In this document: piece after piece, positions 4,271 to 57,968 of the stretch
Layout: each line of letters opens with the position of its first letter
Numbering within the stretch: position 1 is the stretch's first letter
DNA from: a virus
Length of the DNA: 64,000 nt
Strand: one strand, 5' to 3'
IMG/VR virus record: IMGVR_UViG_3300023491_000002
Made by a program: the position numbers and the translations under genes
Notes under the pieces: generated by a model
Databases searched by the model: none
What the model saw: the letters and a program-made list of their open reading frames with translations, nothing else
What the model was told of the DNA's origin: nothing

Positions 4271-4274
4271 TATT

Positions 4275-21800: not shown

Positions 21801-24800
21801 CTTGCTACTATTTTGAGTAAGTTCTATCGTAGATTTAATTCATCTGTTACTAATGTAGAAACTCATAACAGTCTTACATCAGCTATAGACGCTGCTACAA
21901 GTAACGCTGATTATACAATTTATATTGGTAATGAATCTGATACATATAGAGGTCTTATTGATACTTCTGCTATTACTACTATCCCATTGCAGGCAGCTAT
22001 CAATGACACTTTTGATACCGATACACTGCCCTCGGAAATCCAAAATTTGGCACTTGTCGGCAACGGAGAGACGCTTTCTCAATTGAAACGATTAACAATA
22101 CAAGGACAACTTTTTAAGGGCTTAGACAGGCTTATTCAAAGACTAAATCCAGCTAATGTTAGTGCGATTCAAGCTGATGGTATCAATGATATTATAGTTG
22201 ATTACATTGGTATTAAAAAAGATCTTAATACTACTGTTCATACTATTAATAGCTCAACTCCTAAGTTCTCTAAAGTCTTAGATACAGAGTTCATAGCTGA
22301 TGATAATACTGGAATTAGTATGTCAAACCTTGAATTTATTAATACTCTTTATGAAGTTGAAAAGACTGCTATCGGTAATACTAAACTTCTTAGAGATGAA
22401 ATGAATCTCATGGGTGAACTAAATACTAATCTTGATAAGCTTGATGCTAAAGCTCAAAGTGAAATTGCTAGACTTAGTAGAGATATGAATAGTCTTCCTA
22501 ATTATGTTGAAACATTCAAGTATAATGCTAATATACTAGAGAATGTTAAAGATATGATTAAAGCTATTCAAATGCCAATGGATACTGATACTATATTTAA
22601 GCTTTGGACTAAAGGTACTGTTGCTGATCGTAAACAATGGGTTACTGATCTGAATAAACTCAGTAGTCTTATAAAGTCTCAAGCTTATATTGAAGATCTA
22701 AATCCTATTGACGAAGCTAGTTTTGAAAATGCTTCTCAAAATACTAAAGATAGTATTGCAGAATTTAATGAAGCTCTTCTTAATCTTAAAGGTTTATATG
22801 CTGAGATTATGCCTCTTAAACGTAAAGTTGTTGATGCTTCTAAGATTTACTTTGGTTTCTTAATCAATCAAAGAAGTCATAATCCTGCTTTCAATACTAA
22901 GTTTAAGTATATTCAAGATAAGCTTGTTGAAAACGGTTTTAATGCTGATGAAATTGGCGTTTATACTATAAATGAAAGAGATATTCAAGAGAATATTCGT
23001 CGTATGCTCGGTGATAATCTTGATTTATCTACTGTTATTAAATGGTTAGATTCTGCTGCTCAAAGTGGTATTCCAATCATTGATACAGTTCTTTCTCAAT
23101 ATGAGTTCCATACTCTTAATGCTACTGAATTTGCTTTCAATAATAATAAGCGTACATTCGCATTATTTAAGAAGTATGATAGATTCTATAAAGAAAAGTC
23201 TAATGGTAAACCTGATATGACTTTTTCTCAATCTCGTTCTAATGACTTTAGAGCTAGATTCATTAATGAAGCTAATTGTCAACTTGTTACACCGTTTGAT
23301 ATGACTAAAGCCAACTATGATTATCAAATTGGTAAAGCTCGTGAATACGATGATTATATTAAGAGAAGATCTGAGTTAGAACCTCTATTAGAATCTGACG
23401 ATTTTGCTACAGTTAAGAAAGCCCAAGATGCTCTTGCTAAACTTGAGAAAGAACATAAGAAAAGAGTTCATGCTGTAGGTAAAACTATATACTCTACTAT
23501 GAATGTTTCAATACCTGCTAAAATTATTAAAGGTAGACTTGAACTTGATCTTGAAGATGTATATAATAATCCTAAGAAGTATTTTTCTAATCTTAGTGCC
23601 GAAGAAGCATACTATTATACTAAGCTAATTGAACGTGTCTATAAATCTAAGATTCGTAAGAAATTTGCTGAAGCTAATAATATTGAACTTAGTGTTAGAG
23701 GTCAAACTACTAATCGAGTTCTTCTTCAAGTTCAAACTGCAAAAGCTGATTATAGAGACGCTAAGTTTAGTAAACTTACTCATTCTGATATTGATATGAT
23801 AGTTGAAATGCAAGAGATGTTTGCAGAACTTAATGATGTTGCAATGCCTAACACTGTTAGATCTGCTAGTTTCTTCCCGACTTTCATATCTGCTAATCAT
23901 GTGAATGCTCTTAAACAACTTGTTGGTTATCACGAATTACAAGAAGATGATTATAAAAATACACTTAGTGGAGAGACTCAATACTATCTTAAAGCTACTG
24001 CACTTAATCGTCCAGAAGTTATAGGTCGTATTAAGTATGATCTCTACGCTATTACAAATAAAGAAGCTTATGATGCTCTAATTGAAAAAGCTAATAAAAT
24101 AACTAAACATAGAGGTTATTATAAACCTATTACTTCTATTGCAGATATTATCGAATATAATAAAGAGTTATCTGATAAACAATTAGGTGATGTTAGAGAT
24201 CGTATGAACTTTGACCCTATGAATGTTACTCTTAATTATATTAATCAGCTTAAACGTATTAAAGTTAATCGTGACTTTGAGCCCGAACTTAATCTTCTGC
24301 AAACTATTCTTGCTATGCCTGAGTTCCAAGCTCGTGAATATGGTGTTAAGAGTAAGAATGTTATTAATAAGATTCTATCTCTTTATACTCATAAAACTGA
24401 AGTTGTTTCTCGTAAAGGTAAAGAAACAGAAGCTTTTGATAGATTTAAGAAATTCTATGATGCTTTTGAAGGTAAGAATCGTATTAATACATTAACTGAT
24501 CAACTTCTTAATATACTTCATACAGTTAATAGTAAATCTCTTATGTGGATGAACTTAACTGCTGCTTTAAAGAATATTGGTACAGGTCATATCAATATTG
24601 TAAGCGAAGCAACTGGTGGTGAATTTACTACTAAAGCTACACTTCTTAAAGCTCATGAAATGTATATTAAAGCTCTTCCATCATTATGGGCATCACTTGG
24701 TGAATATACTTGTAATAATCTTGATGCAGCTTTAATGAAGTTAGCTGGTAATATTTTTGAAGATCATATTGAAGCTGGAGTAGATACTAAGACTAATATT

Positions 24801-26138
24801 GTTTCTCTTGGTATGTCTAAATGGGATAATGTGATGTTTGCTCCTAATACTATTGGTGAGCATTATTTGCAATTCGCTACTTTCTTGTCAGCTATGCAAA
24901 CTCATCGCATTGTTGCAGGTACTATTATGAATTATGATCAATTCGTATTCTCACTTAGAGAACGTCTCTTTAGAGATATGGTTGATGATGAAACTTATAC
25001 TAAGTATAAAGCATATAAAGATAAACAAGAATCTGTTAAAGGCAATAACGTTGAATTTATAGATTATCTTTCTCGATTTATTGCTTATCGTGCTAATAAC
25101 TTTACTAACGAATGGAAATCTAATTACGCTAAGGCTTATAAAGAAGGTCTTAAGAATGCTAGAGTTGAGTTTGAAAAGAATCAAGTTATATATGATGCTT
25201 TTGAACTTAAAGATGGTATCGCTTCAATTAAAGCTGAAAGTAATATAACTCTTGAAGATTTTGCTAAGTTCTTAGGTAAAGTTAAAGGTATTAATCATAG
25301 TTTGCATGGTATTTACAATACTTTCGATAAATCTATGTTATCTGGTAAGATGTGGGGAGAGGTGATACTTCAATTCCGTAAATGGCTTCGTCCTAACTTT
25401 ATTCGATATTGGGGTAAACGTGTAGGTAAAATTGTATTTGATGAACGTCTTGAATCTTATAGAAGTGGTGCTTACATGGATATGATAAATTTTCTATTAT
25501 CTAATGGCAAAAGTGCTTATAGAGAAACTATTGATAAAGCTATAGAAAATGACGAAGATATTGATTTTGCTACTAAAGCTAAAGCTATATTCAATGGGTT
25601 CTGCGGTTTATTATATTGGTTCAAAGATATAAACTTTAGATATAATACTCTACCTCAAGCTCAAAAGGCTAATATAAAAAGAGCCATGTTTAATTTTACA
25701 ACTCTTGTTGGTTTATCTCTTGTAGCTGCTAGTCTATATGCTGCAAAAGATGATGACGATGAACTTGATGAAAATCGATTCTTTGCTCTTGCTTGTTATA
25801 CTATTTATGGTGTTCAAACTGAACTTTATGAAACTTCACCTTGGGGTCTTTATTCATTCTATAAACGTACTATGGAGGCACCTATACCTTTTGAAACAAG
25901 TATGTCTAATGTTCTTAATCTTGCTTATTGGACACTTATTGCTCCAATGATTGTAGATGATGAAGAAATGCTTTATGATAGAGGTACATATAAAGATGAA
26001 GATAAACGTTGGATTGCATTTAAGAAAACTATTCCGTTATTCAATCAATACAACAAGATGTTCTATTTACCAAAGAACAATACATACTATATGCAACAGA
26101 ACCCAATATTACAGATGATAGTTGAACTAAATAAGTAA
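12888..26138 (+). CDS. Giant (4416 aa) virion protein containing a two-barrel RNA-polymerase-like catalytic motif (GWDYDIDS, DxDxD at nt 17973-17987); candidate fused virion RNA polymerase (vRNAP) plus cargo protein of crAss-like phages
   Basis: 13.25 kb uninterrupted ORF, ATG 12888, TAA 26136-26138. DYDID resembles the Mg-binding DxDxD of QDE-1-like/crAss vRNAP DPBB domains. An additional HEHGH motif lies at 19535-19549. Confidence 0.85.
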   Translation: MGLDCNIIPQIKVGDSYTDSKCFQDLWDRAKKLYPNNPIKARAVAKANYEALKSTSFVSEYGDWVLLRAVQNAGLTDAQFATFQSVYGNNIERLTKSITVPLNEQGEPEIRSFHKYTVAKKAQVLYDNDYPFIADSEQMYLNRIFAAIAFRLEPQFKNLTYKDFKNGVTIRSLIATVLRQYAQNDNPDVGYLGFAAQYNNRLDELEAAGVADEIIDNDPLLISYESKMNNLLRLADQLDNLDDQGIWQSFINYYKAEFMADINDFDVEDYMTMGEINGASMTDEQNINKSWNRSLQFKVDRKNTASSRFKRMLTEMIYNNQSNLFATLEDSQFNGTASYYNKYGLAMPFDINVLWNSLIDATRYAANKEELINSLKVTSESVYNGQLQPIIDQIEIFPNDDASTIERKEIFYNMYMASVDMATTVVTQSETMSYNMSENDYNLAYSVKESNRQSFATTNIYNQYRNILSDKFQHVGSRAAVQYDINAIYKTGKSITDKVNTLLYKSNNVGINWSPNTIFNYLSIKFSVPFDVIKALYHDGNDDNKVNKLVYQKIETELVNIDGVFDKILNQIKANVTDKQSEKAKDRQSRRIKRLFYEGFKAGDEIDSVVDDMRGRINILATVGGCDPAIKVDLSYINVQGEQEYTPEFYNHITSMLQGIVNRIGEVNVELMKYRFNDFLKSKGTKYHPLIWNLGNGMGGDGKGFFNFRKDENDNAILDENGYRILDAVNPVNVEAVKAFQYARFNGMSNRDQGIRTPYVDMHDYIWTRDVILRQFQGRYSLPSADASRIYEFVTGNTLTEPNATKRSLPFKLINTDGTFVNYRIARTNDLESNYLFQRVKDTFRTEMEMMLEARRLLFDYDANTQILSIKKEYLRPEDDVRQEFNFLDSDERSRMISDHNGDAEAAFRAFYESRAFDKDIFEGLQAPIFWDGKALLKNGKPTGNIFKFGNLNFRYTDANGNTTVRSIIDYIEDAFNELHPNAASSFGKFEPFMICGEDFNTAYGDVIDNAYMRMFVDRINSHLQDAFDYLAPVRDNIQSTLTYKNQLKALNETLPEDYKNDRYWGYVVSNLLCNHYVADIAIQEIFTGYTFEFKNALDWAKRASQGVRPGSTTRSNTTYTQIVVSDVNLKDNMLQKMLEPFANDKATSDELNRRFGSKTITTADAFNVITQDECIRRFKAMGDYDSFTLPSGRTLADIVADEDTPISPSDYARIVEQLKYYFYKRGKSTLNNRFNTDIVFSHQDKNSTLVIFKRMYKGTGYETLYDWMKQEGIDSINFESGHKVGGMPKVQLFDISRDIAVDSKGFPILDANGKYTYTNGTKATLNIQYNEATKRLELKGYPKGIEDFKQTLSHSNLYIQQQVPSHLMDEENKIGTQLQKRILDNLVFNGDYTIGGTVRKGKTGDYSYDGSGAFEYYQMLLSANANDEMYRLLADWGAITNDGNIKYTSIETDGGLRNVIGVDLDLVLADLRRYFNETEIDRNFIKATVVVNGKPFIPFYHPTIKSRIESVLLARITRRVTNLKLKGAHVTIQPDTFLQPAAVTLDKKGIIKGTQANIQRMYLEGQIKFSDDYWQSRAELNEDGTIKRDANGTPIIKKNADFKLQSEYWETKADGTKVFHPAEIILNNWDSRFKLDANGNLDLNSVPENLRTMFGIRIPTEGHQSMFVAKVVGVLNNGASQAIVPEHLVTRTGWDYDIDSIYLSMKEFDVIDGQYVEYTKNDSDTYKRQSLEYVSDVYFSKTKDALKNAYLKEKIPLINELADINAKINAQASIDDSVIRRLKQEYKNLQQQRFYSKNVSERNALAKAMELKSAEIEAYNAANMNPAISDAELKALYDTKASIYSKLKKAKSDYDAKYEKFIKETVTPKWNSLNEYRRMPRAAKDNAIIDTWIGIHSDIKNTLNKEKPNEFDHSKAAAAYINRIAGYDNSMMNQHFLIDQIKIRNINNNIAVLKGQSIAADNALSIMGFTQTMLSDEFAIPIRLNFSDIKGYSEDIPNKAEWARKQILKCFKDERLSNGEHSVQVDVASNSVTVWCRSLYNNDYGTWTDINGEPISAQRSELTSHILDAVKDNLWFNMNTYTIGNTALLASFPISWNANLKASNAKVEGTNRYIYSALIESQQIITDFVTNISIKSIENSNNFTNVSFHNVRSDYMIDAVATMSKLLTDKGNSLKAFAKSYFETTQDNVGLKDVITKLSKYLAQEDLSNMAIAKAHEHGHTINMKQTHAMARFIEALANEVGVTAYEVDSKIQNKAKTITELDSLFKEDQNYKHTVEDFEAYANYLNRQLEVLDYYMYVDKAVNAMKRAQGCLITEKKGAGPKTSESNKLFESIAMLEHNVNTLIQNAKDAGIPESMRNELLYKYYSVNAITDKGEVIDNWLLKANDYLLENKDSDGKVIQLDKPKSPFRIGDKSMIEAIFPSIVNTNWEIEDSAYPILQQQLYSTNEISVNMFHDLFISENPAFKDKINYCMAKLKQINNPELREALINYAIIDKVRQMPFFNDDSKSPETLLAERAKLLGCVNIVKDEQTNEFKFKGAVDLALTNVNLKNWYNELESRNYTHDEKIAMFKELPVSIQLAMVKNTLTDGRYVTVNGQYVTKGNLRLNPNHILSLLSPNTMESTIVRTGYISISTKESDDIDFTRDTFFQLINSPDEYCRILGENLVKYAFWVNKLDFGRNLSKYIPIDLYGKFKTKDGNYVSAYKTSWGDQFDSISFESIDGTSDRDIRLAMKEQGITDGGSNFRSENAALYNYAEALYASQANKDNILLRTNEELDVFIEAFVRANSENTRIVKYMKPEYVYDTNCKKSKVKDQTPTFTKITKSNFSRAVFDLKGAVANEWHKDVDLETRKYIEDALNSVIKNAIGIKHNDIWNIVGQMIFEPTRYVNNSSYADDVYLKTREKVIDKELTGLKKTYKAQLPEGMLYKRFDINDCTFYYPINKTFKSEYLTTANDYYKYNIEAQEIYEKLATILSKFYRRFNSSVTNVETHNSLTSAIDAATSNADYTIYIGNESDTYRGLIDTSAITTIPLQAAINDTFDTDTLPSEIQNLALVGNGETLSQLKRLTIQGQLFKGLDRLIQRLNPANVSAIQADGINDIIVDYIGIKKDLNTTVHTINSSTPKFSKVLDTEFIADDNTGISMSNLEFINTLYEVEKTAIGNTKLLRDEMNLMGELNTNLDKLDAKAQSEIARLSRDMNSLPNYVETFKYNANILENVKDMIKAIQMPMDTDTIFKLWTKGTVADRKQWVTDLNKLSSLIKSQAYIEDLNPIDEASFENASQNTKDSIAEFNEALLNLKGLYAEIMPLKRKVVDASKIYFGFLINQRSHNPAFNTKFKYIQDKLVENGFNADEIGVYTINERDIQENIRRMLGDNLDLSTVIKWLDSAAQSGIPIIDTVLSQYEFHTLNATEFAFNNNKRTFALFKKYDRFYKEKSNGKPDMTFSQSRSNDFRARFINEANCQLVTPFDMTKANYDYQIGKAREYDDYIKRRSELEPLLESDDFATVKKAQDALAKLEKEHKKRVHAVGKTIYSTMNVSIPAKIIKGRLELDLEDVYNNPKKYFSNLSAEEAYYYTKLIERVYKSKIRKKFAEANNIELSVRGQTTNRVLLQVQTAKADYRDAKFSKLTHSDIDMIVEMQEMFAELNDVAMPNTVRSASFFPTFISANHVNALKQLVGYHELQEDDYKNTLSGETQYYLKATALNRPEVIGRIKYDLYAITNKEAYDALIEKANKITKHRGYYKPITSIADIIEYNKELSDKQLGDVRDRMNFDPMNVTLNYINQLKRIKVNRDFEPELNLLQTILAMPEFQAREYGVKSKNVINKILSLYTHKTEVVSRKGKETEAFDRFKKFYDAFEGKNRINTLTDQLLNILHTVNSKSLMWMNLTAALKNIGTGHINIVSEATGGEFTTKATLLKAHEMYIKALPSLWASLGEYTCNNLDAALMKLAGNIFEDHIEAGVDTKTNIVSLGMSKWDNVMFAPNTIGEHYLQFATFLSAMQTHRIVAGTIMNYDQFVFSLRERLFRDMVDDETYTKYKAYKDKQESVKGNNVEFIDYLSRFIAYRANNFTNEWKSNYAKAYKEGLKNARVEFEKNQVIYDAFELKDGIASIKAESNITLEDFAKFLGKVKGINHSLHGIYNTFDKSMLSGKMWGEVILQFRKWLRPNFIRYWGKRVGKIVFDERLESYRSGAYMDMINFLLSNGKSAYRETIDKAIENDEDIDFATKAKAIFNGFCGLLYWFKDINFRYNTLPQAQKANIKRAMFNFTTLVGLSLVAASLYAAKDDDDELDENRFFALACYTIYGVQTELYETSPWGLYSFYKRTMEAPIPFETSMSNVLNLAYWTLIAPMIVDDEEMLYDRGTYKDEDKRWIAFKKTIPLFNQYNKMFYLPKNNTYYMQQNPILQMIVELNK

Positions 26139-26164
26139 GGACTTCTGTTGGACTTAAAAAAATG

Positions 26165-26208
26165 AGAGAGGGCTTTCAGATAATACTGTCAGTCCTCTCT
26201 CTTCTTGT
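26165..26208 (+). terminator. Rho-independent terminator after the giant gene
   Basis: GAGAGAGGGCT ... AGTCCTCTCTC (11-bp stem with one mismatch) followed by TTCTTG. Confidence 0.5.
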
Positions 26209-26236
26209 ATCTATACTACTCATACTCCTGCTCGTG

Positions 26237-26294
26237 TCATTGCAAACGCTCCGCCCCGTTCCACATCTATCCCTCTACCGGGGTCTGCAATGCT
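26237..26294 (-). repeat. Interspersed GC-rich mini-element, copy J (variant CCCCGGTAGAGGG)
   Basis: Reverse complement reads CATTGCAGACCCCGGTAGAGGGATAGATGTGGAACGGGGCGGAGCGTTTGCAATG. It forms an inverted pair with copy A about 200 bp away. Confidence 0.75.
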
Positions 26295-26487
26295 CCACAA
26301 TGCCATTTTTGCCACCTGCGGGCTTCATATATTGATTATCTATTGGCAGACGATAACTAGTTCATATTATAAAAGAAAGTGTCTCTATGAGGCTCTATTG
26401 AAGTTATCATTATCAAACATTTGCATTATTATCACGGCTTATGATAACGATGCAATTTAATTATAATCATAGTAGCATTAGTAACAC

Positions 26488-26545
26488 TTTCCAGACCCCA
26501 GTAGGGAACATGGTGTGGTCAGGAGCGGAACTAAGCATAGCACTT
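26488..26545 (+). repeat. Interspersed GC-rich mini-element, copy A
   Basis: TTTCCAGACCCCAGTAGGGAACATGGTGTGGTCAGGAGCGGAACTAAGCATAGCAC. The 3' flank CTAAGCATAG forms a 10-bp inverted repeat with 26555-26564. Confidence 0.85.
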
Positions 26546-26569
26546 GTAACAGCACTATGCTTAGAAGTA

Positions 26570-32991: not shown

Positions 32992-34350
32992 TTAATCGTT
33001 AGATTCATAATCACGAACTCCGTAAGCATTAGCATTAAACGGAATGTTCTTATCTGTACGTTCATAAAACTTAATGGCAAGCATTTTACCGATAAATTCA
33101 TTCTTATGACTAAGAATATAATCACTTGTCATAGTATTATCGGTATTGCCATTATAAATAGCTGTAGGCTTAACTTCAAATGTTTCAGCATTTAAATCAT
33201 TCTTACATTTGAACTTAGCATAATTATAAACTACCTCATGACCATCAACAATTTTAGTTATAGGATCAACGAGAATATCTAAACACAAACATTCAGTCTC
33301 TTCACATTGTTTAGCTTTCATCATAGTTTGTGGACGAGAACCGAATTTATATTCTGCAATCTTAGAGCGAACAACACAACCTTCATAACCGGCTGCAATA
33401 CAACGATCTCTATAAGCTTCAACATCAGAATCACCTTTAATATTAATAGAACATAATGAAACTATTTTAGCATTTTTAGTATCATCATGTTCTTCAGGAA
33501 TATCTTGTATAAAAATACAATCATCATCATTATTAACAGCTAAACTAAAGGCTTTTCTTAATATATTTCTTCTAAGATGAAAACGATCTCTATTAGAAAC
33601 ATCAGGAATACTAAGATCAAAATTCACAAATTGAAGATATTTATGAAGAGGATTCTTAGGATTACGTGCAGCACCACCAATAGTAGTATTCTTTTGATCT
33701 TTAATATAAAGCTCACCATCAAAAGTAATATTTCTATAATTGGGGGTACAATAAACATAAGTCATAAAAGCATCTTCAATATGTTTTACATTATAACGAA
33801 GACCTTCTTTACTACGAATAACAACCTCATAAGTAGTACCAAATAAACCGTTATCAACAGCTTCATACTTGATAGTACAACGTACCCCATTAATCTTAGG
33901 ATCAGCAAAAGCACCATTAGAATAATCAAAAATGCCAGTTTTCCACTTTTGACACTTCATAGGTTTATCAACATTGTTTGCATCAGTAGCAAATTTAGGA
34001 ATAACGTTATCTAGTAGATCATGAAGTTGATTAGCACTCTCATACATATCACTAGTAACACCATACATTTCTGCCGTCTTGTATCCTCGATCGATTTTAC
34101 GCTTGATTTGGCTCTTATAAGAAGTCTTTGTTGAAGCTGATACAATTACCTGTCCGACATCTGAAAGTCGCTCAAACAAGCCGTATGACACCCTCTCGTA
34201 GCTTCCGTCAGTTTCAATTCTCCAAAACACAATACGCCCCAGTGCATCACGCTTGTAAAGAGTAGTAACGTTATCATCCCCATATACGGTTGCCATCTTC
34301 ATCAACGTTATGCGATAAAACAATACAATGCGTAGGATTATTATATGCAA
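32992..34350 (-). CDS. ATP-dependent DNA (or RNA) ligase, nucleotidyltransferase superfamily (about 435-452 aa); motif I is KINGVR (Asn in place of the usual Asp)
   Basis: Motifs I (KINGVR), III (FDGELYI), IV (EGCVVRS) and V (MMKAK) occur in canonical order and spacing. The likely true start is MKMATVYG near 34299. Confidence 0.7.
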   Translation of the reverse strand: MHIIILRIVLFYRITLMKMATVYGDDNVTTLYKRDALGRIVFWRIETDGSYERVSYGLFERLSDVGQVIVSASTKTSYKSQIKRKIDRGYKTAEMYGVTSDMYESANQLHDLLDNVIPKFATDANNVDKPMKCQKWKTGIFDYSNGAFADPKINGVRCTIKYEAVDNGLFGTTYEVVIRSKEGLRYNVKHIEDAFMTYVYCTPNYRNITFDGELYIKDQKNTTIGGAARNPKNPLHKYLQFVNFDLSIPDVSNRDRFHLRRNILRKAFSLAVNNDDDCIFIQDIPEEHDDTKNAKIVSLCSINIKGDSDVEAYRDRCIAAGYEGCVVRSKIAEYKFGSRPQTMMKAKQCEETECLCLDILVDPITKIVDGHEVVYNYAKFKCKNDLNAETFEVKPTAIYNGNTDNTMTSDYILSHKNEFIGKMLAIKFYERTDKNIPFNANAYGVRDYESND

Positions 34351-35825: not shown

Positions 35826-35843
35826 ATTTACATCTTTTGTAAC

Positions 35844-35897
35844 ATTTGCAATCCCCAGTAGGGAACAAGGTGAGGTCACGTGCGGAGCGTTAGCAAC
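35844..35897 (+). repeat. Interspersed GC-rich mini-element, copy B
   Basis: TTTGCAATCCCCAGTAGGGAACAAGGTGAGGTCACGTGCGGAGCGTTAGCAAC. Intergenic, between a terminator and the primase-like gene. Confidence 0.85.
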
Positions 35898-40666: not shown

Positions 40667-42994
40667 TCAATCAAACAAGTTATTACTATTATTGTTAATA
40701 CCACGACGTTCACCTTTACCTGTTTTACCATTACCATAAAGAATCTTATAGGCTTCATTAATATAAAAACCATAATTAAGATTATAATCTTCTTTATATT
40801 CGTAATCATTAAACAAAGCCACTCTCTGATTAGCAACAAGCGACTTCTCTTCTTCAACAACTATTCCACTAATATCATCACCATACGCTATATTATCAGA
40901 ATCAGGAACAATAGCTTTTGTTATAGCACCTCCACCACTTTTACAAATATAAAAACGATTATGCTTTTGACACTTAATATAAACAGGTTTACCATCTCTA
41001 ACTGTCTTATAAATTGTAGTATATTTACCAGCAACTTTCTGACTAAAACAGTAATCATAAATGGCAGTACGAGAAGTATTGATATAATTTCTAATAAATT
41101 CAGTAATATCAACACCATAAAGGAAATATTCTTTAAGAGCTTTCTTAACAACAGGATAAACAAAACCTTTATTATATTCAGGGTCTTGAAGAAAATAACC
41201 TTTAAACTTAATAAATTTATCTTCAATAGCTTGACGTGTGGTGTAAGTATTACTTTTAGAATCAATCCATACACCACAACGATTATATTCTTGTAAAGCA
41301 TCATAGAAACCATATCCAACAGCAATATAATCATTAACAGCACTTCTACAATACTTCTCAAACTTTTCAGTTTCAAGATCTAATTTACTATAAACACTCC
41401 ATTCATTACAGATATGTTTAAACACATCTTGACGATTAAGAGGTAATCTAACAAGTAGACCATCTGTATTTGCAGATAACACATCAAAGTTATTCAACTC
41501 AAATGCTTCTATCAAACCACATAGTAATAATTGCAGATTAATAGTTACAGTATAAGTGCATTCGGGATCATATAGATAATCCATAGCATCATTAAGAGCA
41601 CCATAAATTCTATTGATCACAATCTTAAGAGCATCAGCTTCTAACTTTCTTCCAGTATGTTTAGCTTCAACACGAGTTTCACGTAACCATTTAACAATGC
41701 CAATAAAGACTTCTTTAGATAAATGATGAGGTGCAACACCATATTCAATAATAAAACTAGGATACATTGAAGTAACATCAGGGTCAGCAAGAATCTCACC
41801 AGATTCAGCCCAAATGACACGAGGATCATCTTTACTATGAAGACCTCCTTTTGCCATCGTATAGCCCTTATCATAAGAAAGAAATTCTAAGGATTGAAAG
41901 CTCTTTCTCCATGTAGTAACAACGATTCCATTAACAATAGACTCACGTTTAAGTTCACTTTGCTTAGGACTACCAAGACCAATATAAATACTATATCTCT
42001 GAATAGATTCAAGAATCTTCCTATAAAAAGAAGTCTTAAATTGAATACTATCTTTGACAACTTTACCAATAGGCACAGCACTACGCTCAGTTCTAAGATC
42101 AACAAATTCATAAGAAGGCATACCTGACCATTCAGAATAGAACTTAGTCATTAGATTTTTACCAATAGAACTACGAGACATATTACGTAAATCAATAGCA
42201 TACATCTCACTTAGCTTAGCACGAAGATCTAATTCCTTTTGTTGATTCTTAACAAGAGCATCAGTACCAAGAACATCATTAATATTATAATCTGTTACAA
42301 GTGCTATCTCATCACGTTTGATACGATAACTCCAATGAATAGGTAAGTCTTGAATACGATACCATTTCAGAACTATCATAACAGCTTTAAGAGCAACAAA
42401 TGTAGCATCAAGATATAGAATCTTTTGAATATCAAAATCAGTAAAAGGACGGAAATATCTACGACCTTTATAAAAATCAAGAAGTCTACGATACGTTTTA
42501 CCACCCATATCCTTATCAACAGCTTTCTGAGAATGCTCAAATAGAAATTCAGTTATATGTTGCTTTCTACCATAAGTATCTTCACGAAGACCAGTCTTCC
42601 AATCAAATGTAGGAGCATAATGAATAAATATATCAAGCATGGTCATATCATAGTTAAAACTATTATAACCAATGATAATTTTATGAGATTTAAAAAACAT
42701 ATAAAGACCTTCAATACCACTACTAATATTATTAGAATCATCCCATGAAGTAGGTGTCATATTCTGACGTTCAAATTTATCTTCATGATAAGCTCTATAA
42801 ATAATAAAAGTCTTAGCACCTATAGCTTCAAGAATAAGACGTTTATCTTCTTTATTCTTAGCTATATCAGCAGCAATGTATAAATCAATAATATCTTGAG
42901 GAACACCATAAGGAATGAAGCTAACCTCAAACATATTAATGTAACACTCAATATCATATATCCAACTAGTAGTTGGTGACTTATTAGCAGCCAT
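40667..42994 (-). CDS. polB: Family B DNA polymerase with 3'-5' exonuclease domain (775 aa)
   Basis: Exo I is YDIECY, Exo II is NSFNYDMTML, motif A is DPDVTSMYPS (DxxSLYPS), motif B is KIVINRIYGAL (Kx3NSxYG), motif C region is LSANTDGLLV. Confidence 0.85.
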   Translation of the reverse strand: MAANKSPTTSWIYDIECYINMFEVSFIPYGVPQDIIDLYIAADIAKNKEDKRLILEAIGAKTFIIYRAYHEDKFERQNMTPTSWDDSNNISSGIEGLYMFFKSHKIIIGYNSFNYDMTMLDIFIHYAPTFDWKTGLREDTYGRKQHITEFLFEHSQKAVDKDMGGKTYRRLLDFYKGRRYFRPFTDFDIQKILYLDATFVALKAVMIVLKWYRIQDLPIHWSYRIKRDEIALVTDYNINDVLGTDALVKNQQKELDLRAKLSEMYAIDLRNMSRSSIGKNLMTKFYSEWSGMPSYEFVDLRTERSAVPIGKVVKDSIQFKTSFYRKILESIQRYSIYIGLGSPKQSELKRESIVNGIVVTTWRKSFQSLEFLSYDKGYTMAKGGLHSKDDPRVIWAESGEILADPDVTSMYPSFIIEYGVAPHHLSKEVFIGIVKWLRETRVEAKHTGRKLEADALKIVINRIYGALNDAMDYLYDPECTYTVTINLQLLLCGLIEAFELNNFDVLSANTDGLLVRLPLNRQDVFKHICNEWSVYSKLDLETEKFEKYCRSAVNDYIAVGYGFYDALQEYNRCGVWIDSKSNTYTTRQAIEDKFIKFKGYFLQDPEYNKGFVYPVVKKALKEYFLYGVDITEFIRNYINTSRTAIYDYCFSQKVAGKYTTIYKTVRDGKPVYIKCQKHNRFYICKSGGGAITKAIVPDSDNIAYGDDISGIVVEEEKSLVANQRVALFNDYEYKEDYNLNYGFYINEAYKILYGNGKTGKGERRGINNNSNNLFD

Positions 42995-43591
42995 TTATTT
43001 TAAAATAACCCATTGATTAACAAATTTACGATAAGCAATAACAGCAGTATCATATGCACGATCGAGATAACTATAGTCGTTATTCTTACGCATATATTCA
43101 AGACTCATAGTATAAATATGTATCTTACCATTAGGAAGCACATCAATACCTTCTCCACCTTTAGGAAAAGCTTTACCTCCACTAATAATAAAATACGGAT
43201 CTTTACCATAAGTTATGAACATACTAGGTTCAACTCTAGCAATCTCTCTTTGAAGTCTAGGAAAACATTCAGCAATAGCTTTCGCATTAATAGTCTGAGA
43301 TGTACCACATTTGACAACAGAAGTAATATACGATAAAGCAAGTAATTTCTTATCTTCAAGAATACGTCTAATGAATTTACCTGTGTTACCACTAAGTACG
43401 TATTTAGTCTTTCTATCAGCAGGACTAGGAGCAGCAACTAAATGTAGGATAGTTCCGCTCCCTTCCAGTCCTTGTCCCCTACTGGGGATTAGAGAGTTCC
43501 GCACACATAGATCACACTTATCACAATAATCATCTTCACGTAATTCATCAGACGTATCTTCAAACATATTAGAAAATCTCGTTTGCATCAA
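42995..43591 (-). CDS. Family-4 uracil-DNA glycosylase-like protein (198 aa) with degenerate catalytic motif; contains in-frame copy C of the interspersed GC-rich repeat
   Basis: CDKCDLC is the Fe-S CxxCxLC pattern of UDG4. ILHLVAAPSPADRKTKYVLSGNTGKFIRRIL aligns with [31 protein letters not shown], but GEAPG has become VAAPSP. Confidence 0.5.
   Translation of the reverse strand: MMQTRFSNMFEDTSDELREDDYCDKCDLCVRNSLIPSRGQGLEGSGTILHLVAAPSPADRKTKYVLSGNTGKFIRRILEDKKLLALSYITSVVKCGTSQTINAKAIAECFPRLQREIARVEPSMFITYGKDPYFIISGGKAFPKGGEGIDVLPNGKIHIYTMSLEYMRKNNDYSYLDRAYDTAVIAYRKFVNQWVILK
43445..43503 (-). repeat. Interspersed GC-rich mini-element, copy C, in-frame sense copy inside the UDG-like CDS
   Basis: Reverse complement reads GGAACTCTCTAATCCCCAGTAGGGGACAAGGACTGGAAGGGAGCGGAACTATCC. 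It encodes NSLIPSRGQGLEGSGT. Confidence 0.85.
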
Positions 43592-43833
43592 TAATTACTT
43601 TTAGCAGCAATTTGTTCAAACAAACTACGTTGCATAAAGACAGTATGAAAAGATTCAGCATCTCTAAAAATCTTAACATCATATCCTTTTACATCACAAT
43701 CATATTCGGTAGAATCAAACGAATACTTTTCACAATAAGCACCAAACGAAATAGGAGAAGCTTCAACAAGAACATCATCAATCATGTATTCAGCTTCACC
43801 TAACGCTTTATATTCTTCATCAGTTAATGCCAT
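43588..43833 (-). CDS. Hypothetical protein (about 81 aa)
   Basis: The ORF track extends to 43911 through repeat copy D. A start at MALTDEEY (43833) is more plausible. Confidence 0.4.
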   Translation of the reverse strand: MALTDEEYKALGEAEYMIDDVLVEASPISFGAYCEKYSFDSTEYDCDVKGYDVKIFRDAESFHTVFMQRSLFEQIAAKSNY

Positions 43834-43854
43834 ATCAATAACATTTAGTAAAAC

Positions 43855-43908
43855 TTTGCAAACCCCAGTAGGGATGAAGAAGTGGTAGGGAGCGGAGCAT
43901 CTGCAACT
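43855..43908 (+). repeat. Interspersed GC-rich mini-element, copy D
   Basis: TTTGCAAACCCCAGTAGGGATGAAGAAGTGGTAGGGAGCGGAGCATCTGCAAC. Confidence 0.85.
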
Positions 43909-44135
43909 CAACGAGTATTCTTAGCACAATAACCGATAACATCATGCATGATATTATGAATAACAGCTTCAACACTATTATTTGTTTCATCATAAATATC
44001 AACATCCAAATCAGGATTGATAGCTTTAATCGCTCGTTTCGTATTAGCCAATACCTCTTCACCATCTTGAACTGTATTAAGTTCATATTGACAAAGAGTA
44101 TTTCCATTAGACATTGTAACTTTAACTATAACCAT
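43908..44135 (-). CDS. Hypothetical protein (75 aa)
   Basis: ORF. Confidence 0.4.
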   Translation of the reverse strand: MVIVKVTMSNGNTLCQYELNTVQDGEEVLANTKRAIKAINPDLDVDIYDETNNSVEAVIHNIMHDVIGYCAKNTR

Positions 44136-44147
44136 AATATAATTAGA

Positions 44148-44378
44148 TTAAAGATCAAACATATCAATAGCCATAATATCAGGTATAAATATAATATGAT
44201 AAAGATTATAAACACATTCATAACCTTTATCAAGATCATCAAATTCATCAGAATTTATATTATACTTCATCTTATATTCTTGAAACGTACATCTAGTAAT
44301 GATCAAAGCAATATCATTAATCAAAACATTTGTACAAATTGGCAATCTATTTTCTGTCTTCTTCGGTAGTATCGGCAT
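44148..44378 (-). CDS. Hypothetical protein (76 aa)
   Basis: ORF. Confidence 0.4.
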   Translation of the reverse strand: MPILPKKTENRLPICTNVLINDIALIITRCTFQEYKMKYNINSDEFDDLDKGYECVYNLYHIIFIPDIMAIDMFDL

Positions 44379-44691
44379 AAACAGAAGTTCCGTCTTCGTA
44401 TTTCAGAGTTGAACAAACAACAGCAGTAAGATCATAACCTTTAAGATTAGCTCTAGCTTTAAGGAACTCCATCTTACCAACAGTATCAACATTTAAACCA
44501 CTAGCAAACAAATGTTCTTCGAGAACTTGAACAGCACTCATAGAACATTGCTCAGCAACCCAAGTAATAGGAACCATCCAACGATTATGAATAATACGTT
44601 GATTACTACCCATACCACAAAAATCTCCCCAGCATTCTTTCAGAACATAAATCTTATCTATATTCTGAACTTGTTCTTCACTTGTAAGCAT
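44347..44691 (-). CDS. Hypothetical protein (114 aa)
   Basis: ORF. Confidence 0.5.
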   Translation of the reverse strand: MLTSEEQVQNIDKIYVLKECWGDFCGMGSNQRIIHNRWMVPITWVAEQCSMSAVQVLEEHLFASGLNVDTVGKMEFLKARANLKGYDLTAVVCSTLKYEDGTSVYADTTEEDRK

Positions 44692-44700
44692 AATATCAAT

Positions 44701-44862
44701 TTAAAGTTCTTCAATATCAATAGGACTTTCAGAAGCCATATAATAGCAATCATCAAGTATAAGACCTTTATCTCTCATAACTTCTTCAATATCTTCATCA
44801 TTCTTAACAGTAAAATGATATATTGAAGATGTACAATAATCAAACACATAAACATGTTCCAT
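44701..44862 (-). CDS. Small hypothetical protein (53 aa, MEHVYVFDYCTSSIYHF...), not in the supplied ORF track
   Basis: ATG to TAA ORF that exactly fills the 170-bp gap between neighbouring genes. Confidence 0.3.
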   Translation of the reverse strand: MEHVYVFDYCTSSIYHFTVKNDEDIEEVMRDKGLILDDCYYMASESPIDIEEL

Positions 44863-44865
44863 ATC

Positions 44866-45189
44866 TTAATGTTTATCAAATACAGCATTGAAGTCAGCTT
44901 CTTTCATAAGAACAGCATAACCTTCAACCTTTTGTGTAAATATATCTTTACTAACAATAGTATAGCGTTTAAGACATTGATCTTCACCAACAGATATAAC
45001 GAAACACTTATTATTAGCAACTCTAGCTTTACATTCGTCACAAATATCTCCTTGTATATATCTAGGAGCTTCTTCATCTCCTTTGATATGACCTAATAAA
45101 GCAACACTTTCAGCCTTACCACAAATAGGACATACTGCCATACTTGGATTAAGACCATGTTTTTTACTAAGAGTAATACCTTTTCCCAT
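44866..45189 (-). CDS. Zn-ribbon small protein (107 aa)
   Basis: CPICGK...CDEC cysteine pairs. Confidence 0.5.
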   Translation of the reverse strand: MGKGITLSKKHGLNPSMAVCPICGKAESVALLGHIKGDEEAPRYIQGDICDECKARVANNKCFVISVGEDQCLKRYTIVSKDIFTQKVEGYAVLMKEADFNAVFDKH

Positions 45190-45192
45190 AGT

Positions 45193-46662
45193 TTATAATT
45201 TTAGATAAGCGTGTTTAGTAGCTCTACTCATAGCTACATAAAGAAGTCTAAGAGCTTCAGCAGAGTTACGTCTAATACGCTTACCCCACTTAGTTTGAAA
45301 ATAGATAATATCATCAAGATCAATACAAACATTTTCAAAGGTAGAACCTTGGCTCTTATGTGCGGTTATACCATAACCATAATCAATATCTTTAACAACA
45401 AGTCTATTCTTGTTAGCAGCATTGAGTCTATAGTCGGTCATAGTAAGATGAATATCCTTAAATCTAAAGTATCTAAACCATCTACTACGATCAGTACCAG
45501 TAAGAGCTTTATAATGAATTGCATTTAGCATAGCACCGAAATTATCCATGTTATTAGAATCCCAAAAATCAATGATCTTAAACATAGGAGTAACTTTACC
45601 ATCAAATGCAGACCTCAATGTAATACAATAACAAGCAAGACCATTATCTGCTACATAATACCGAACATCATGAACAACATAATCTTCACTATTAATAATA
45701 ATGGGGGATTTGTATTCATCAAATACAGTACGATATGCAGTAAACATATCATCTTTCGTTATCATACCTTGAGGATTATTCAGAACACCATCACGAATAA
45801 AAGTATTCCAAAATCCAATACAATCATTAGTAAAAGCAATAAGTCTAACATAATTAATATCCTTACTAAAGTTATCAGAACTAAACATTTCAATAACCTT
45901 ATTGCGGAAATTAAGTTTATTCATAATAGTAAAACCTTCACCTTGAGTATTAATAGCTTCACGAGTTTGAAGAATATACTGATAGAAATTAGCAGTACCA
46001 TTAATCAAATCAGAGCGAATAATACCAAACAGTTCAAGCAAAGGATTACCAGCTTCTTGTCTAACAATTTGAGTTAAACGAAATTGAACATCAGTATGAG
46101 TAAAAGAAGGACTAATACGATTATAAGTATCTTCTTCACCTTTTCCTTTAGCAACAACATAAGGAATCTGAAGTTCATCTCCTAAGAATAGGAGTTTACA
46201 TCGACACTGAATAGCCGTCTTTATGAGTAGATTAAACAGACCAGGATTAATCATAGAACACTCATCAATAATGACAAGTCTATAACCTCTCATTTTCTGT
46301 TCACCTATAACCTTAAAAGAAGGATTCTCAATGTTATAATCTTCAATATCTACATCAGGTCTAAGACCACATAGAGATTGAATAGTCATACCTTTCTTAC
46401 CGGAACTATTTTCAAGAACTCGAAGAGCTTTATGAGTTGGAGCTGTAACACAAACCTTTTCAACTATCAAATAACGTACAAGATGACGCATGATAAAAGT
46501 TTTACCAGTACCGGCATAACCACTAAGAGTAAAACTTATGGATTGTGATTGCCACCATTGCCAAATAACATTAATAGCATCTTCTTGTTGTTCTTTAAAA
46601 TAAGAAACATTAATACGTTTGGCAGACCTAAGTAGCGCATCTTTATTAAAATCAGAACTCAT
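45193..46662 (-). CDS. SF1B Dda/RecD/Pif1-like DNA helicase (489 aa)
   Basis: Walker A is GYAGTGKTF, Walker B is LVIIDECSMI, motif V/VI is TAHKSQGSTFENV. Confidence 0.8.
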   Translation of the reverse strand: MSSDFNKDALLRSAKRINVSYFKEQQEDAINVIWQWWQSQSISFTLSGYAGTGKTFIMRHLVRYLIVEKVCVTAPTHKALRVLENSSGKKGMTIQSLCGLRPDVDIEDYNIENPSFKVIGEQKMRGYRLVIIDECSMINPGLFNLLIKTAIQCRCKLLFLGDELQIPYVVAKGKGEEDTYNRISPSFTHTDVQFRLTQIVRQEAGNPLLELFGIIRSDLINGTANFYQYILQTREAINTQGEGFTIMNKLNFRNKVIEMFSSDNFSKDINYVRLIAFTNDCIGFWNTFIRDGVLNNPQGMITKDDMFTAYRTVFDEYKSPIIINSEDYVVHDVRYYVADNGLACYCITLRSAFDGKVTPMFKIIDFWDSNNMDNFGAMLNAIHYKALTGTDRSRWFRYFRFKDIHLTMTDYRLNAANKNRLVVKDIDYGYGITAHKSQGSTFENVCIDLDDIIYFQTKWGKRIRRNSAEALRLLYVAMSRATKHAYLKL

Positions 46663-49318: not shown

Positions 49319-49354
49319 AATATATACTTTAGTATTAGCATCACTCCACGTAGC

Positions 49355-49410
49355 ATTTCCAGACCCCAGTAGGGAGATAGGACTGGAACGGGGCGGAACT
49401 TAGAGCATAC
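49355..49410 (+). repeat. Interspersed GC-rich mini-element, copy E
   Basis: TTTCCAGACCCCAGTAGGGAGATAGGACTGGAACGGGGCGGAACTTAGAGCATAC. The 3' flank overlaps the stop codon of the 49400..49810 gene. Confidence 0.85.
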
Positions 49411-52784: not shown

Positions 52785-52942
52785 AATGGTAATGCTGAAT
52801 GAATTATTAAATTATTTACGATGTTTCTCTCGATACTCCAATATTAATGGAGGTACAATTGCTAAAAATATGAATACTAATGCTCCTACTATTTCTTCTG
52901 TTGTAAAATAATCTTCCATTTCTAAAGTTATTACTATAGGGA

Positions 52943-52992
52943 TGCTAAATGCTGCTCCTTCCAGTCCTTGTTCCCTATTGGGGATTGGAAAG
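52943..52992 (-). repeat. Interspersed GC-rich mini-element, copy F (CCCCAATAGGG variant)
   Basis: Reverse complement reads TTTCCAATCCCCAATAGGGAACAAGGACTGGAAGGAGCAGCATTTAGCATC. Confidence 0.8.
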
Positions 52993-52994
52993 CT

Positions 52995-53246
52995 CTACTG
53001 ATTGTTAAAAGTCTTTACGAATATCTTCTTTGATTCTCTTGATATTACAAGTTTATGAATAATTGGATATTCTTTTACACTTATTCTTGCGAATTTACAA
53101 AAATCTTTGATTTTATTTCTTACTTTATCTGATGCTACTTTTATTTCTATTGTTTCATCTGATACTACACATTCGGTATCTTTGTGACACTGTATTTCCA
53201 TTGTCACATTATACCTCGTACATACTACAGTTAATCTTATAATCAT
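52995..53246 (-). CDS. Small protein (83 aa), possibly related to the tandem paralog family
   Basis: IEIKVASDKVRNKIKDF resembles the paralog pattern. Confidence 0.4.
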   Translation of the reverse strand: MIIRLTVVCTRYNVTMEIQCHKDTECVVSDETIEIKVASDKVRNKIKDFCKFARISVKEYPIIHKLVISRESKKIFVKTFNNQ

Positions 53247-57152: not shown

Positions 57153-57800
57153 GCCTCTCACAATCGATATAAAGTCAAGCAACAGAGTCACTAAAAGTCT
57201 TAGAATTAATAATTGTAATAACAATAGAAAATGTTTTAGAATTTGCAATAAAAGAATCATGAGAATAAGCCATACAATAGAGCTAATAGAAGTCTTAGAA
57301 TTATCGTCACTAAAATCAATAGAAACTCCATAAGAATCAAAATTAAAAATTGCATTACTAAAAGCCTTAAAATAACCAATAATAAAATCCAGAGAATATC
57401 CGCAATAAATTGTAATAGAATAGGTTCCTGCACACAAACTCTCATAATCGGTATAAAGTCGAACAACAGTGTCATTAAAGCCAATAGAAAATTGAATAGT
57501 AATAGTGTTAGAAAATGCTTTAGAATTAATAATAGAAGATTGGTAAAGACGAGCCTATGTAATAGAAATTGCAAAATGAATTAAATTAGCTGCCCTGCTT
57601 ATATCCAAAGTTCCTTAAGCAATTGCAATATCAAAAGAATTAGAATAAGCACTTAAATCGCTCTGTGTACAAATCCGAATATTAGAACTTGCAATGTGAA
57701 TTAAATAAGAAGCCTTACTTATATTCAAAGTAATTTGAGTAATACTAAAAGTATACTTAATATAATCGGCATTAGCTTTAAAATTAATTAGAGTAACATT
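57153..57800. repeat. Degenerate tandem (iteron-like) repeats with a period of about 283 bp, at least 2.5 copies, containing roughly 120-bp sub-repeats and many ATTGCAAT/TTTGCAAT motifs
   Basis: CTCTCACAATCGATATAAAGTCAAGCAACAGAGTCACTAAAAG at 57153 aligns with CTCTCATAATCGGTATAAAGTCGAACAACAGTGTCATTAAAG at 57436. ATTGCAAAATGAATTAAATTAGC at 57568 aligns with CTTGCAATGTGAATTAAATAAGA at 57688. Confidence 0.7.
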
Positions 57801-57968
57801 AAGACAATCAGCATAAGCATTATCAAAATTCAGTGTATAATTTGCCAAAAATGTAAGCCGAAATGTGGTAACGTTGATTCTATTACAAATAATATTACAA
57901 GTAATATCAGAGTTACTCTAAGTAGTAATAGTATTAATACTACCGGTATTTATAATAACTTTGATGAG

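Follow-up and report, generated by a model that had tools for sequence, protein, structure and literature searches.

A uracil-DNA glycosylase-like protein with a replaced active site, and an antisense element within its codons, beside the family-B DNA polymerase of a crAss-like gut phage

Uracil-DNA glycosylases (UDGs) of family 4, such as T. thermophilus UDGA (1UI0) and the enzymes of T. maritima (1L9G/1VK2) and S. tokodaii (4ZBX), have an alpha/beta fold and four cysteines for a [4Fe-4S] cluster. Here we describe a protein predicted to share this fold, encoded in a 64,000-nt stretch of DNA from IMG/VR virus record IMGVR_UViG_3300023491_000002 (the whole stretch is called the window below), together with a copy of a ~60-nt GC-rich element that lies antisense within the same gene. 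The source of the window is a crAss-like gut phage. A viral UDG can serve a replicative polymerase: Vaccinia D4 is the processivity factor of the E9 polymerase; it is a family-1-like, active glycosylase that needs the A20 bridge and has no Fe-S cluster. In phages, N4-like family-A polymerases carry an inactivated family-4 UDG domain at their N-terminus, and processivity has been put forward as its role (PMC10201439, cluster 17); UDG is counted among the nucleotide-metabolism enzymes of crAss-like phages by Yutin et al. (PMC7886860). A glutamate (E52) activates the water, or His109 in the case of UdgX, and an asparagine (N91) and the motif B histidine (H178) hydrogen-bond the uracil; UdgX itself is defined by the motif A GEQPG and an R-loop, KRRIH, with a nucleophilic His (PMC10359453).

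The window protein resembles the family-4 UDGs in overall length and has the same layout of loop, beta-1 and helix. Unlike them, it reads V(A/T)APSP for GE(A/G)PG, Leu for Phe, Ser for Asn and SLE for HPS; it also carries an extra third N-terminal cysteine (CxxCxLC) and misses the NCBIfam family-4 cut-off. Vaccinia D4 offers a parallel in role, as a viral UDG-fold DNA-binding accessory of a family-B replicative polymerase—the role that we propose here—but has no sequence relationship to the window protein beyond the superfamily. The UDG4 domain of the N4-like polymerases is likewise a UDG4 fold in phage replication whose catalytic residues are not conserved, and it is tied to a replicative polymerase, physically there and genetically here; however, it is an N-terminal fusion to a family-A enzyme, whereas the window protein is a separate open reading frame (ORF) of 197 aa beside a family-B enzyme. 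The window protein keeps its Fe-S cysteines. Inactivated phage UDG4 modules that go with polymerases are already known, and the window protein is a new, stand-alone form of these. Such an Fe-S protein next to a family-B polymerase would extend the N4-like precedent, and suggests that phages have repeatedly taken up this fold for their replisomes. Of the findings reported here, the dual-coded antisense motif is the more original.

The coding sequence occupies 42995-43588 on the minus strand. Its ATG at 43588 overlaps the TGA of an upstream 81-aa gene (TGATG), so that the likely product is 197 aa long; the listed ORF of 198 aa begins one codon earlier, at a TTG (43591), and residues are numbered here from the ATG. 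An earlier note on this DNA had assigned a UDG fold to the ORF at 42995-43591 (minus strand), and Pfam, PDB profile matches and Foldseek agree on it. The Pfam UDG superfamily model PF03167 matches with 35.7 bits (cut-off 24.3; E=1.1e-8), and sequence searches of the PDB match family-4 UDGs only (4ZBX, 1VK2/1L9G and 1UI0); 4ZBX is matched at E=8e-5 by the sequence alone and at 2.4e-7 by a profile of the clade, by which we mean the protein and its close homologues. An AlphaFold2 (AF2) model built from the clade alignment is of moderate quality, with a predicted local distance difference test score (pLDDT) of 67 and a predicted template-modelling score (pTM) of 0.68. Its top Foldseek matches are again the family-4 UDGs 1L9G, 1VK2, 1UI0 and 4ZBX at template-modelling (TM) scores of 0.55-0.6, followed by UdgX; the probability is 1.0 against 1L9G, 1UI0, 4ZBX and UdgX, at TM scores of 0.5-0.6. 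Fold matches in BFVD include UDG-PolA enzymes and crAssphage UDGs. The dedicated models are missed by a wide gap—the family-4 model TIGR00758 scores 23.7 bits against a cut-off of 125.3, and NF040953 scores 32 bits against 250.

Sequence and model together thus point to a family-4 UDG fold with all four [4Fe-4S] cysteines in place. The N-terminal cluster, YCDKCDLC (43505-43525, minus strand), has the spacing C22-x2-C25-x2-C28, so the CxxCxLC motif remarked on in the earlier note is indeed kept; C22 and C25 correspond to the first two ligands of family-4 UDGs. The third and fourth ligands fall within codons 94-108 (43265-43309, minus strand): C94 (in VVKCG; 43307-43309) and C108 (in AECFP; 43265-43267) align with the cysteines of VVKCRP and ..AC.P in 4ZBX and 1L9G. 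Within the clade C22, C25 and C28 are invariant and C94 and C108 conserved, and among 129 distant relatives the ligand columns are nearly always cysteine (C22 in 125/129, C25 in 127/129, C94 in 125/129 and C108 in 128/129). The retention of C22, C25, C94 and C108 predicts that the protein binds a cluster.

The active site is another matter. As far as alignments can tell, every residue that holds uracil or activates water in the family-4 enzymes and UdgX has been replaced. Motif A reads V51-A52-A53-P54-S55-P56 (43421-43438, minus strand; DNA GTT GCT GCT CCT AGT CCT), and in HMMER alignments VAAPSP falls column by column on GEAPGE in 4ZBX and GEGPGE in 1UI0 and 1L9G, which bears out the reported loss of GEAPG. 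In the same alignments Leu65 (43394-43396, minus strand) takes the place of the uracil-stacking Phe, with GxPFxG changed to KYVLSG, which aligns on GRPFVG; and Ser90 (43319-43321, minus strand) takes the place of the uracil-binding Asn of TN(A/V)V, with ITNVVKC changed to ITSVVKC. Motif B His-Pro-Ser, from the consensus HPS(S/A)(L/V)(L/V)R, is replaced by Ser162-Leu163-Glu164 (43097-43105, minus strand) in a MAFFT alignment with the 129 relatives, where the three columns hold H in 72, P in 100 and S/A in 71; the stacking-Phe column is F in 77/129 and the pocket-Asn column N in 65/129. No His occurs in IHIYTMSLEYMRK besides the strand residue H157. The replacements are shared by the whole clade: the motif A Glu has become Ala or Thr, the stacking Phe Leu or Ile, the pocket Asn Ser, and motif B Ser-Leu-Glu.

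The earlier note had allowed that an intact catalytic motif might be found elsewhere in the protein; we find none of motif B or UdgX type, since SLE stands at the HPS position, the sequence has neither GEQPG nor a KRRIH-like loop, and the UdgX model TIGR03914 gives no match at E<=0.01. Neither H49 nor D58 varies within the clade. In ordinary family-4 enzymes motif A is followed by an E/D, of which D58 is the counterpart, so D58 is not a new catalytic residue.

What replaced the catalytic loop is itself conserved. The clade consensus at motif A is V[AT]APSPAD, near-invariant down to 55% identity, and the ratio of nonsynonymous to synonymous rates (dN/dS) in the close, less saturated pairs is 0.21-0.28, indicating purifying selection. 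We therefore regard the protein as functional and very probably not a uracil glycosylase; repurposing, rather than decay, is very probably what the sequences record, in line with the suggestion in the earlier note of an inactive or repurposed enzyme. The clade is small: there are ~30 close homologues in public metagenomes, its full-length members form one cluster at 50% identity, and the next relatives appear at E~1e-13 (HMMER, 1.84 billion cluster representatives). A profile search of a word-indexed database added one distant match only, and tblastn of the protein against 50,697 GenBank phage records returned nothing at E<=1e-3. One seemingly strong match, P0037 (3263 aa, 18 stretches), was discarded as a repeat adhesin artefact, and two distant relatives of the dead type, P0038 and P0043, have no related loci in IMG/VR, hence no gene context.

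A reader of the earlier note might have taken the loss of GEAPG for a peculiarity of this protein, which it is not. All four pocket residues are retained in only 37/129 of the nearest cluster representatives, and none in 12/129; on these alignments, loss of pocket residues is common among the nearest relatives and not very unusual. A named example is QOR59763.1 of the uncultured phage cr127_1 (Crassvirales, Crevaviridae; locus L069, MT774393.1, 6095-6703, minus strand), which is annotated 'uracil-DNA glycosylase' and is an instance of the UDG marker described by Yutin et al. 2021 (PMC7886860). It belongs to the same fold family and has the same position between helicase and polymerase, and it likewise lacks the motif A Glu (it reads GAAPS), the pocket Asn and the motif B His; it differs from the window protein in keeping the stacking Phe, in sequence (27% identity) and in having no element copy. 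Because the catalytic residues are gone both in the clade and in cr127_1, the enzyme annotation of the crAss-like 'UDG' is probably wrong in these cases. We found no paper that calls a crAss-like UDG catalytically dead. Many crAss-like phages carry 'UDG' as a marker gene that is taken as a sign of uracil repair, and its annotation as an enzyme seems unsafe more generally.

Immediately N-terminal to the degenerate motif A, the gene doubles as regulatory-looking DNA. An nhmmer match at 43449-43508 (plus strand, E=7.5e-16) places a copy of the ~60-nt element antisense to the gene, pointing away from PolB and toward the operon start; it scores as well as the intergenic copies and coincides with a GC-rich island at 43440-43500. 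The copy overlaps codons 30-46 (RNSLIPSRGQGLEGSGT; 43451-43501, minus strand), which are in frame and form the native UDG4 loop before beta-1, directly N-terminal to that strand and motif A. The claim in the earlier note that the protein hosts an element copy is thus right as to the DNA—the copy is real, in frame and where it was said to be—but not as to the protein, in which nothing has been inserted. At 28 residues, the spacing between the second Cys and the Pro of motif A lies within the family range (25-34, with a mode of 26); the peptide N.x.P.RG.G (PxRG) is also found in relatives free of the element, including a canonical GEAPG-type protein that reads VPGRG.

The codons themselves carry the signal. 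In the window gene 71% of codons 30-46 are rare, against 10% in the remainder, and GC content at third codon positions (GC3) is 0.47 against 0.16; the same contrast holds in 7/7 homologues (rare codons 53-76% vs 5-11%, GC3 0.47-0.59 vs 0.05-0.17). In this genome, no more than 4-13% of the respective synonymous set falls to each of CCC, AGG, AAC, ATC, AGC and GGA, and 1-3% to CGG, CTG and GGG. The core AAC TCT nnn ATC CCC AGT AGG GGA has a synonymous identity of 0.90, vs 0.69 elsewhere in the gene. The rare-codon contrast and the conserved core therefore indicate that selection acts on the nucleotide sequence within the codons: codons 30-46 are double-coded, spelling an ordinary UDG4 loop in one direction and the element consensus, by way of conserved rare synonymous codons, in the other. 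An antisense in-gene copy is present in every clade locus retrieved by way of the protein (L001-L007) and absent from cr127_1; it is also present in 24/24 IMG/VR loci that carry the gene, a count that is not independent because the element pattern itself had served to find those loci. In-place origin of the copy is most likely, since PxRG needs few synonymous changes to spell CCC AGT AGG GGA—the step would be from CCN-AGY-AGR-GGN to that sequence. As an instance of selection on the nucleotides within a gene, the stretch is a clean one.

The in-gene copy has a partner. A sense copy at 43840-43901 (minus strand, nhmmer E=2e-16) lies in the gap before the 81-aa gene, and the two form a convergent inverted pair whose arms are 78% complementary over 45 nt, with 353 nt between; the same pair recurs in IMG/VR with starts 406 nt apart. 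Within pairs, identity runs at 0.67-0.76, just as it does towards any other copy, and this lack of co-variation leaves an RNA duplex unsupported. Long-range pairing or gene conversion between the two copies was considered and set aside, as there is no excess identity within the pair.

Across the window we find 11 copies in both orientations, of which 8 point with local transcription and 3 are antisense. Besides the two just described, of which the sense copy spans 43840-43904 in this full set, they lie at 7759-7819(+), 11782-11848(-), 26245-26305(+), 26475-26537(-), 35830-35894(-), 49349-49405(-), 52941-53006(+), 57955-58021(-) and 58145-58207(+); the plus-strand gene blocks at 1-4.2 kb and 59.3-64 kb have none. 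A 36-nt probe of the element found 0 matches in 100 shuffles, so that the 11 copies are not a product of chance. Aligned without gaps, 34 element sequences from the window and related contigs show the invariant or near-invariant blocks GCTCC, CC, C, CCCTACTGGGG and A.G, and a core of GCTCC-N3-CC-N4-C-N5-CCCTACTGGGG. The consensus folds into nothing more than a 4-bp hairpin, CCCC-TACT-GGGG, for which RNAalifold finds 4 pairs and 0 compensatory changes, and which is followed by (A/T)TTGCAAAG, not by a T-run. No Rfam family matches at gathering thresholds, and no tRNA; with neither such a match nor covariation, we rejected the idea of the element as an RNA structure.

Most copies of the element are intergenic in the replication module and sense to transcription; others, two in number besides the in-gene copy, lie inside a giant ORF at 4236-12869. 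The intergenic copies usually end 25-47 nt before the next ATG, at fixed distances of 27-33 or 45-47 nt, whereas the distance to the upstream stop varies; 46/50 intergenic sense copies end <=40 nt before the next ATG. Copies occupy syntenic positions across genomes whose proteins are only 55-60% identical, and vertical inheritance is indicated by orthologous copies that resemble each other more than paralogous copies do. Fixed start distance and synteny together look like the behaviour of a maintained cis-signal tied to gene starts rather than that of a mobile repeat. We therefore read the element, from these patterns, as probably a non-canonical promoter-like or protein-binding signal, and as a handle on the regulatory signals of an abundant gut phage group.

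The nearest described counterpart is the 'tripartite' middle/late promoter motif of phi14:2 and the beta-crassvirinae, an extended motif with 17/137 matches in coding regions (bioRxiv 10.1101/2020.03.07.982082). Like the window element, it is long, conserved, found upstream of crAss-like genes, and mostly intergenic and sense; however, it has -35/-10-like boxes, is used by the host RNA polymerase and serves middle and late genes, whereas the window element is GC-rich and box-free, carries the CCCC-TACT-GGGG mini-hairpin, and is found in the replication module and the giant ORF at 4236-12869. Our literature search on Crassvirales motifs found no published description of the element.

Three further arrangements of the element deserve mention. 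The antisense copy in the 2877-aa ORF (11787-11840, plus strand) uses the same frame as that in the UDG-like gene and encodes a similar peptide, RTNSLTPDREGAVEGSGT vs VRNSLIPSRGQGLEGSGT; this sharing has about a 1-in-2 chance, because CAG TAG always closes one of the three frames in antisense orientation. A 430-nt gap at 26139-26569, between the converging giant-ORF and replication modules, holds two facing copies ~170 nt apart; from this position they might serve as a boundary or terminator, or might enclose a small transcript. A second antisense copy lies upstream in the minus-strand gene array (52941-53006, plus strand), at a position comparable to that of copies in the relatives: L001 1769-1825, L002 1819-1868, L003 3810-3858, L005 1780-1831 and L007 609-664, all on the minus strand. 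The window, L005 and L007 share a sequence, ATTACAAGTTTATG, ~55-60 nt downstream of this copy; it may be the mark of a small opposite-strand gene or RNA.

The genes around the UDG-like gene are those of a replication operon. Its TAA abuts the ATG (42994) of a 775-aa family-B DNA polymerase (PolB; 40667-42994, minus strand), which matches PHROG 1252 'DNA polymerase' at E=4.6e-107 and lies directly downstream. The 81-aa gene (43588-43833, minus strand), which has no Pfam match, heads the 81-aa/UDG-like/PolB run, its stop overlapping the UDG-like start. Further upstream in the same array is a superfamily-1 (SF1) helicase of the PIF1/RecD-like type (45193-46662, minus strand; Pfam AAA_30, PIF1 and UvrD_C_2), syntenic throughout the related loci. 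In 6 independent related contigs and in cr127_1 the genes keep this order: SF1 helicase, small genes, UDG-like gene, PolB. Small genes syntenic to the 81-aa gene are present in L001-L007, and the UDG-like gene adjoins PolB in L003, L006, L001 and L007, where adjacent pairs overlap or abut.

Taking these observations together, we propose that the protein would not excise uracil, and would instead be a non-catalytic Fe-S DNA-binding subunit made together with PolB, in a role parallel to that of the inactivated UDG4 domain wedged between the exonuclease and polymerase domains of N4-like PolA. That it is not a uracil glycosylase is highly likely from its residues; that it is an accessory subunit of PolB has, in our judgement, an even chance. 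Of the roles suggested in the earlier note, that of polymerase accessory factor is our best guess, favoured because of gene order, start/stop coupling with PolB and the N4-like PolA precedent. As for the element, the in-gene copy would fire or bind against the operon, convergent with the operon's own copy ~400 bp upstream, and the arrangement could modulate expression of the 81-aa/UDG-like/PolB operon. The explanation as a whole—a dead UDG4-fold replisome partner whose gene is dual-coded with an element—we hold to be slightly better than an even bet.

Several points weigh against this explanation. Loss of the Glu is by itself no proof of inactivity because family-5 UDGs (motif A GLAPA) are active without a polar motif A residue, although they keep the motif B His. 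Gene adjacency is imperfect: a Tad5-like gene stands between the UDG-like gene and PolB in L005, where it directly follows the former, and in L002 such a gene comes after two further small genes, ~1.3 kb downstream; in cr127_1 a small ORF separates the UDG-like gene from the polymerase. In the AF2 model, pLDDT drops below 50 for the Cys region and for most of the loop that the element encodes (residues 33-40). For the element, neither sigma-70-like nor Bacteroidetes-like -33/-7 boxes were recognised, a sigma-70 scan of 42000-45000 gave 14 sites vs 17.3 expected with none at the elements, and 0 terminators were found; the convergent pair 26245+/26475-, placed after the last genes of converging modules, fits a terminator or boundary better than a promoter. 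Finally, all functional statements made here are inferred from sequence.

Could the protein still be a DNA glycosylase, its pocket rebuilt, that acts on another substrate (a modified base, say, or a damaged one) through another catalytic residue? The intact fold and Fe-S ligands, the strong conservation of a replaced loop that shows no drift, the invariant H49 and D58, and the existence of active families with a non-polar motif A such as family 5 would all suit such an enzyme. We nevertheless think it unlikely, as four pocket positions have changed together, among them the motif B His retained in family 5, D58 matches an ordinary family-4 residue, and the score for TIGR00758 is far below its cut-off. 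An inert UDG fold might alternatively act as an anti-defence or decoy factor, shielding phage DNA or titrating a glycosylase-based or uracil-sensing host defence. Here we have a phage-encoded, inactive DNA-repair fold, and the Tad5-like genes nearby in L005 and L002 indicate that anti-defence cargo can land at this site; but the gene holds a stable core position in the replication operon of all relatives, down to cr127_1, unlike the variable accessory islands usual for anti-defence genes, and we give this role a small share of the probability. Neither alternative displaces the polymerase accessory factor as our preferred reading of the protein.

The rivals for the in-gene copy are of a different kind. 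A recent selfish insertion, similar to a miniature inverted-repeat transposable element (MITE), could have disrupted the catalytic loop region in a UDG that had been active before, and such an element would leave behind an island of high GC in a genome of 32% GC, many copies scattered in both orientations and two further copies within the giant ORF. Against it stand the normal loop length and a peptide common to element-free relatives, the same codons in every clade member down to 55% identity, and syntenic copies with orthologues more alike than paralogues; cr127_1, moreover, is without the element and yet also without the Glu. No empty sites occur among 7 genomes, and the aligned copies and their flanks share no terminal inverted repeat or flanking duplication, although no dedicated search for either was made. 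We consider an insertion very improbable. The rare-codon run might instead reflect a translational pause for Fe-S insertion, or pairing of the mRNA with the upstream copy, with no signal at the DNA level: the run begins two codons after C28, and a long-range stem between the complementary copies on the operon mRNA is possible in principle. A pause, however, would leave a match of E~1e-15 to a genome-wide consensus unexplained, and pairing is at odds with partner copies that do not co-vary, a 4-bp hairpin without compensatory change and the lack of an Rfam family; this account seems distinctly improbable. More specific than our preferred reading, of a promoter-like or protein-binding signal, is the idea that the element with its CCCC-TACT-GGGG hairpin is a signal of the phage's own transcription machinery, for example the virion RNA polymerase, so that the in-gene copy would be an antisense promoter throttling the PolB operon. 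The virion-packaged RNA polymerase of phi14:2 prefers single-stranded templates and has no known promoter, which makes a hairpin-containing signal attractive but unproven; we regard this version as a long shot. If it were true, a regulatory signal would have been born inside a protein-coding loop and kept by dual coding.

The window is AT-rich (31.7% GC), and a megablast search of GenBank phage DNA with a 4.7-kb region matched only a 115-nt PolB segment of cr127_1. Two adjacent giant ORFs on the plus strand, of 2877 aa (4236-12869) and 4416 aa (12888-26138), are presumably the crAss-type virion RNA polymerase and ejected-protein block. The replication module runs on the minus strand from ~57.5 kb down to 26.5 kb and also contains an ATP-dependent ligase (32992-34302, minus strand).

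Among the related loci, the Tad5 gene (Pfam PF25190, an anti-Thoeris family) is located at 10601-11197 in L005 and 11919-12533 in L002; the window has no such gene. Three relatives, L001 (10579-13908), L005 (11204-14520) and L007 (10570-13892), have PolB as two ORFs on either side of a gene for a GIY-YIG endonuclease, an arrangement that looks like an intron; the window PolB is a single intact ORF. Between the diverging modules of the window lies an apparently non-coding region of ~1.8 kb (57476-59271), in which the element pair 57955-/58145+ is divergent. The region also holds two direct repeats of ~64 nt (57560-57623 and 57680-57743), 120 nt apart, and a long purine-rich G/A tract at ~58440-58530; it may be an origin or early control region.

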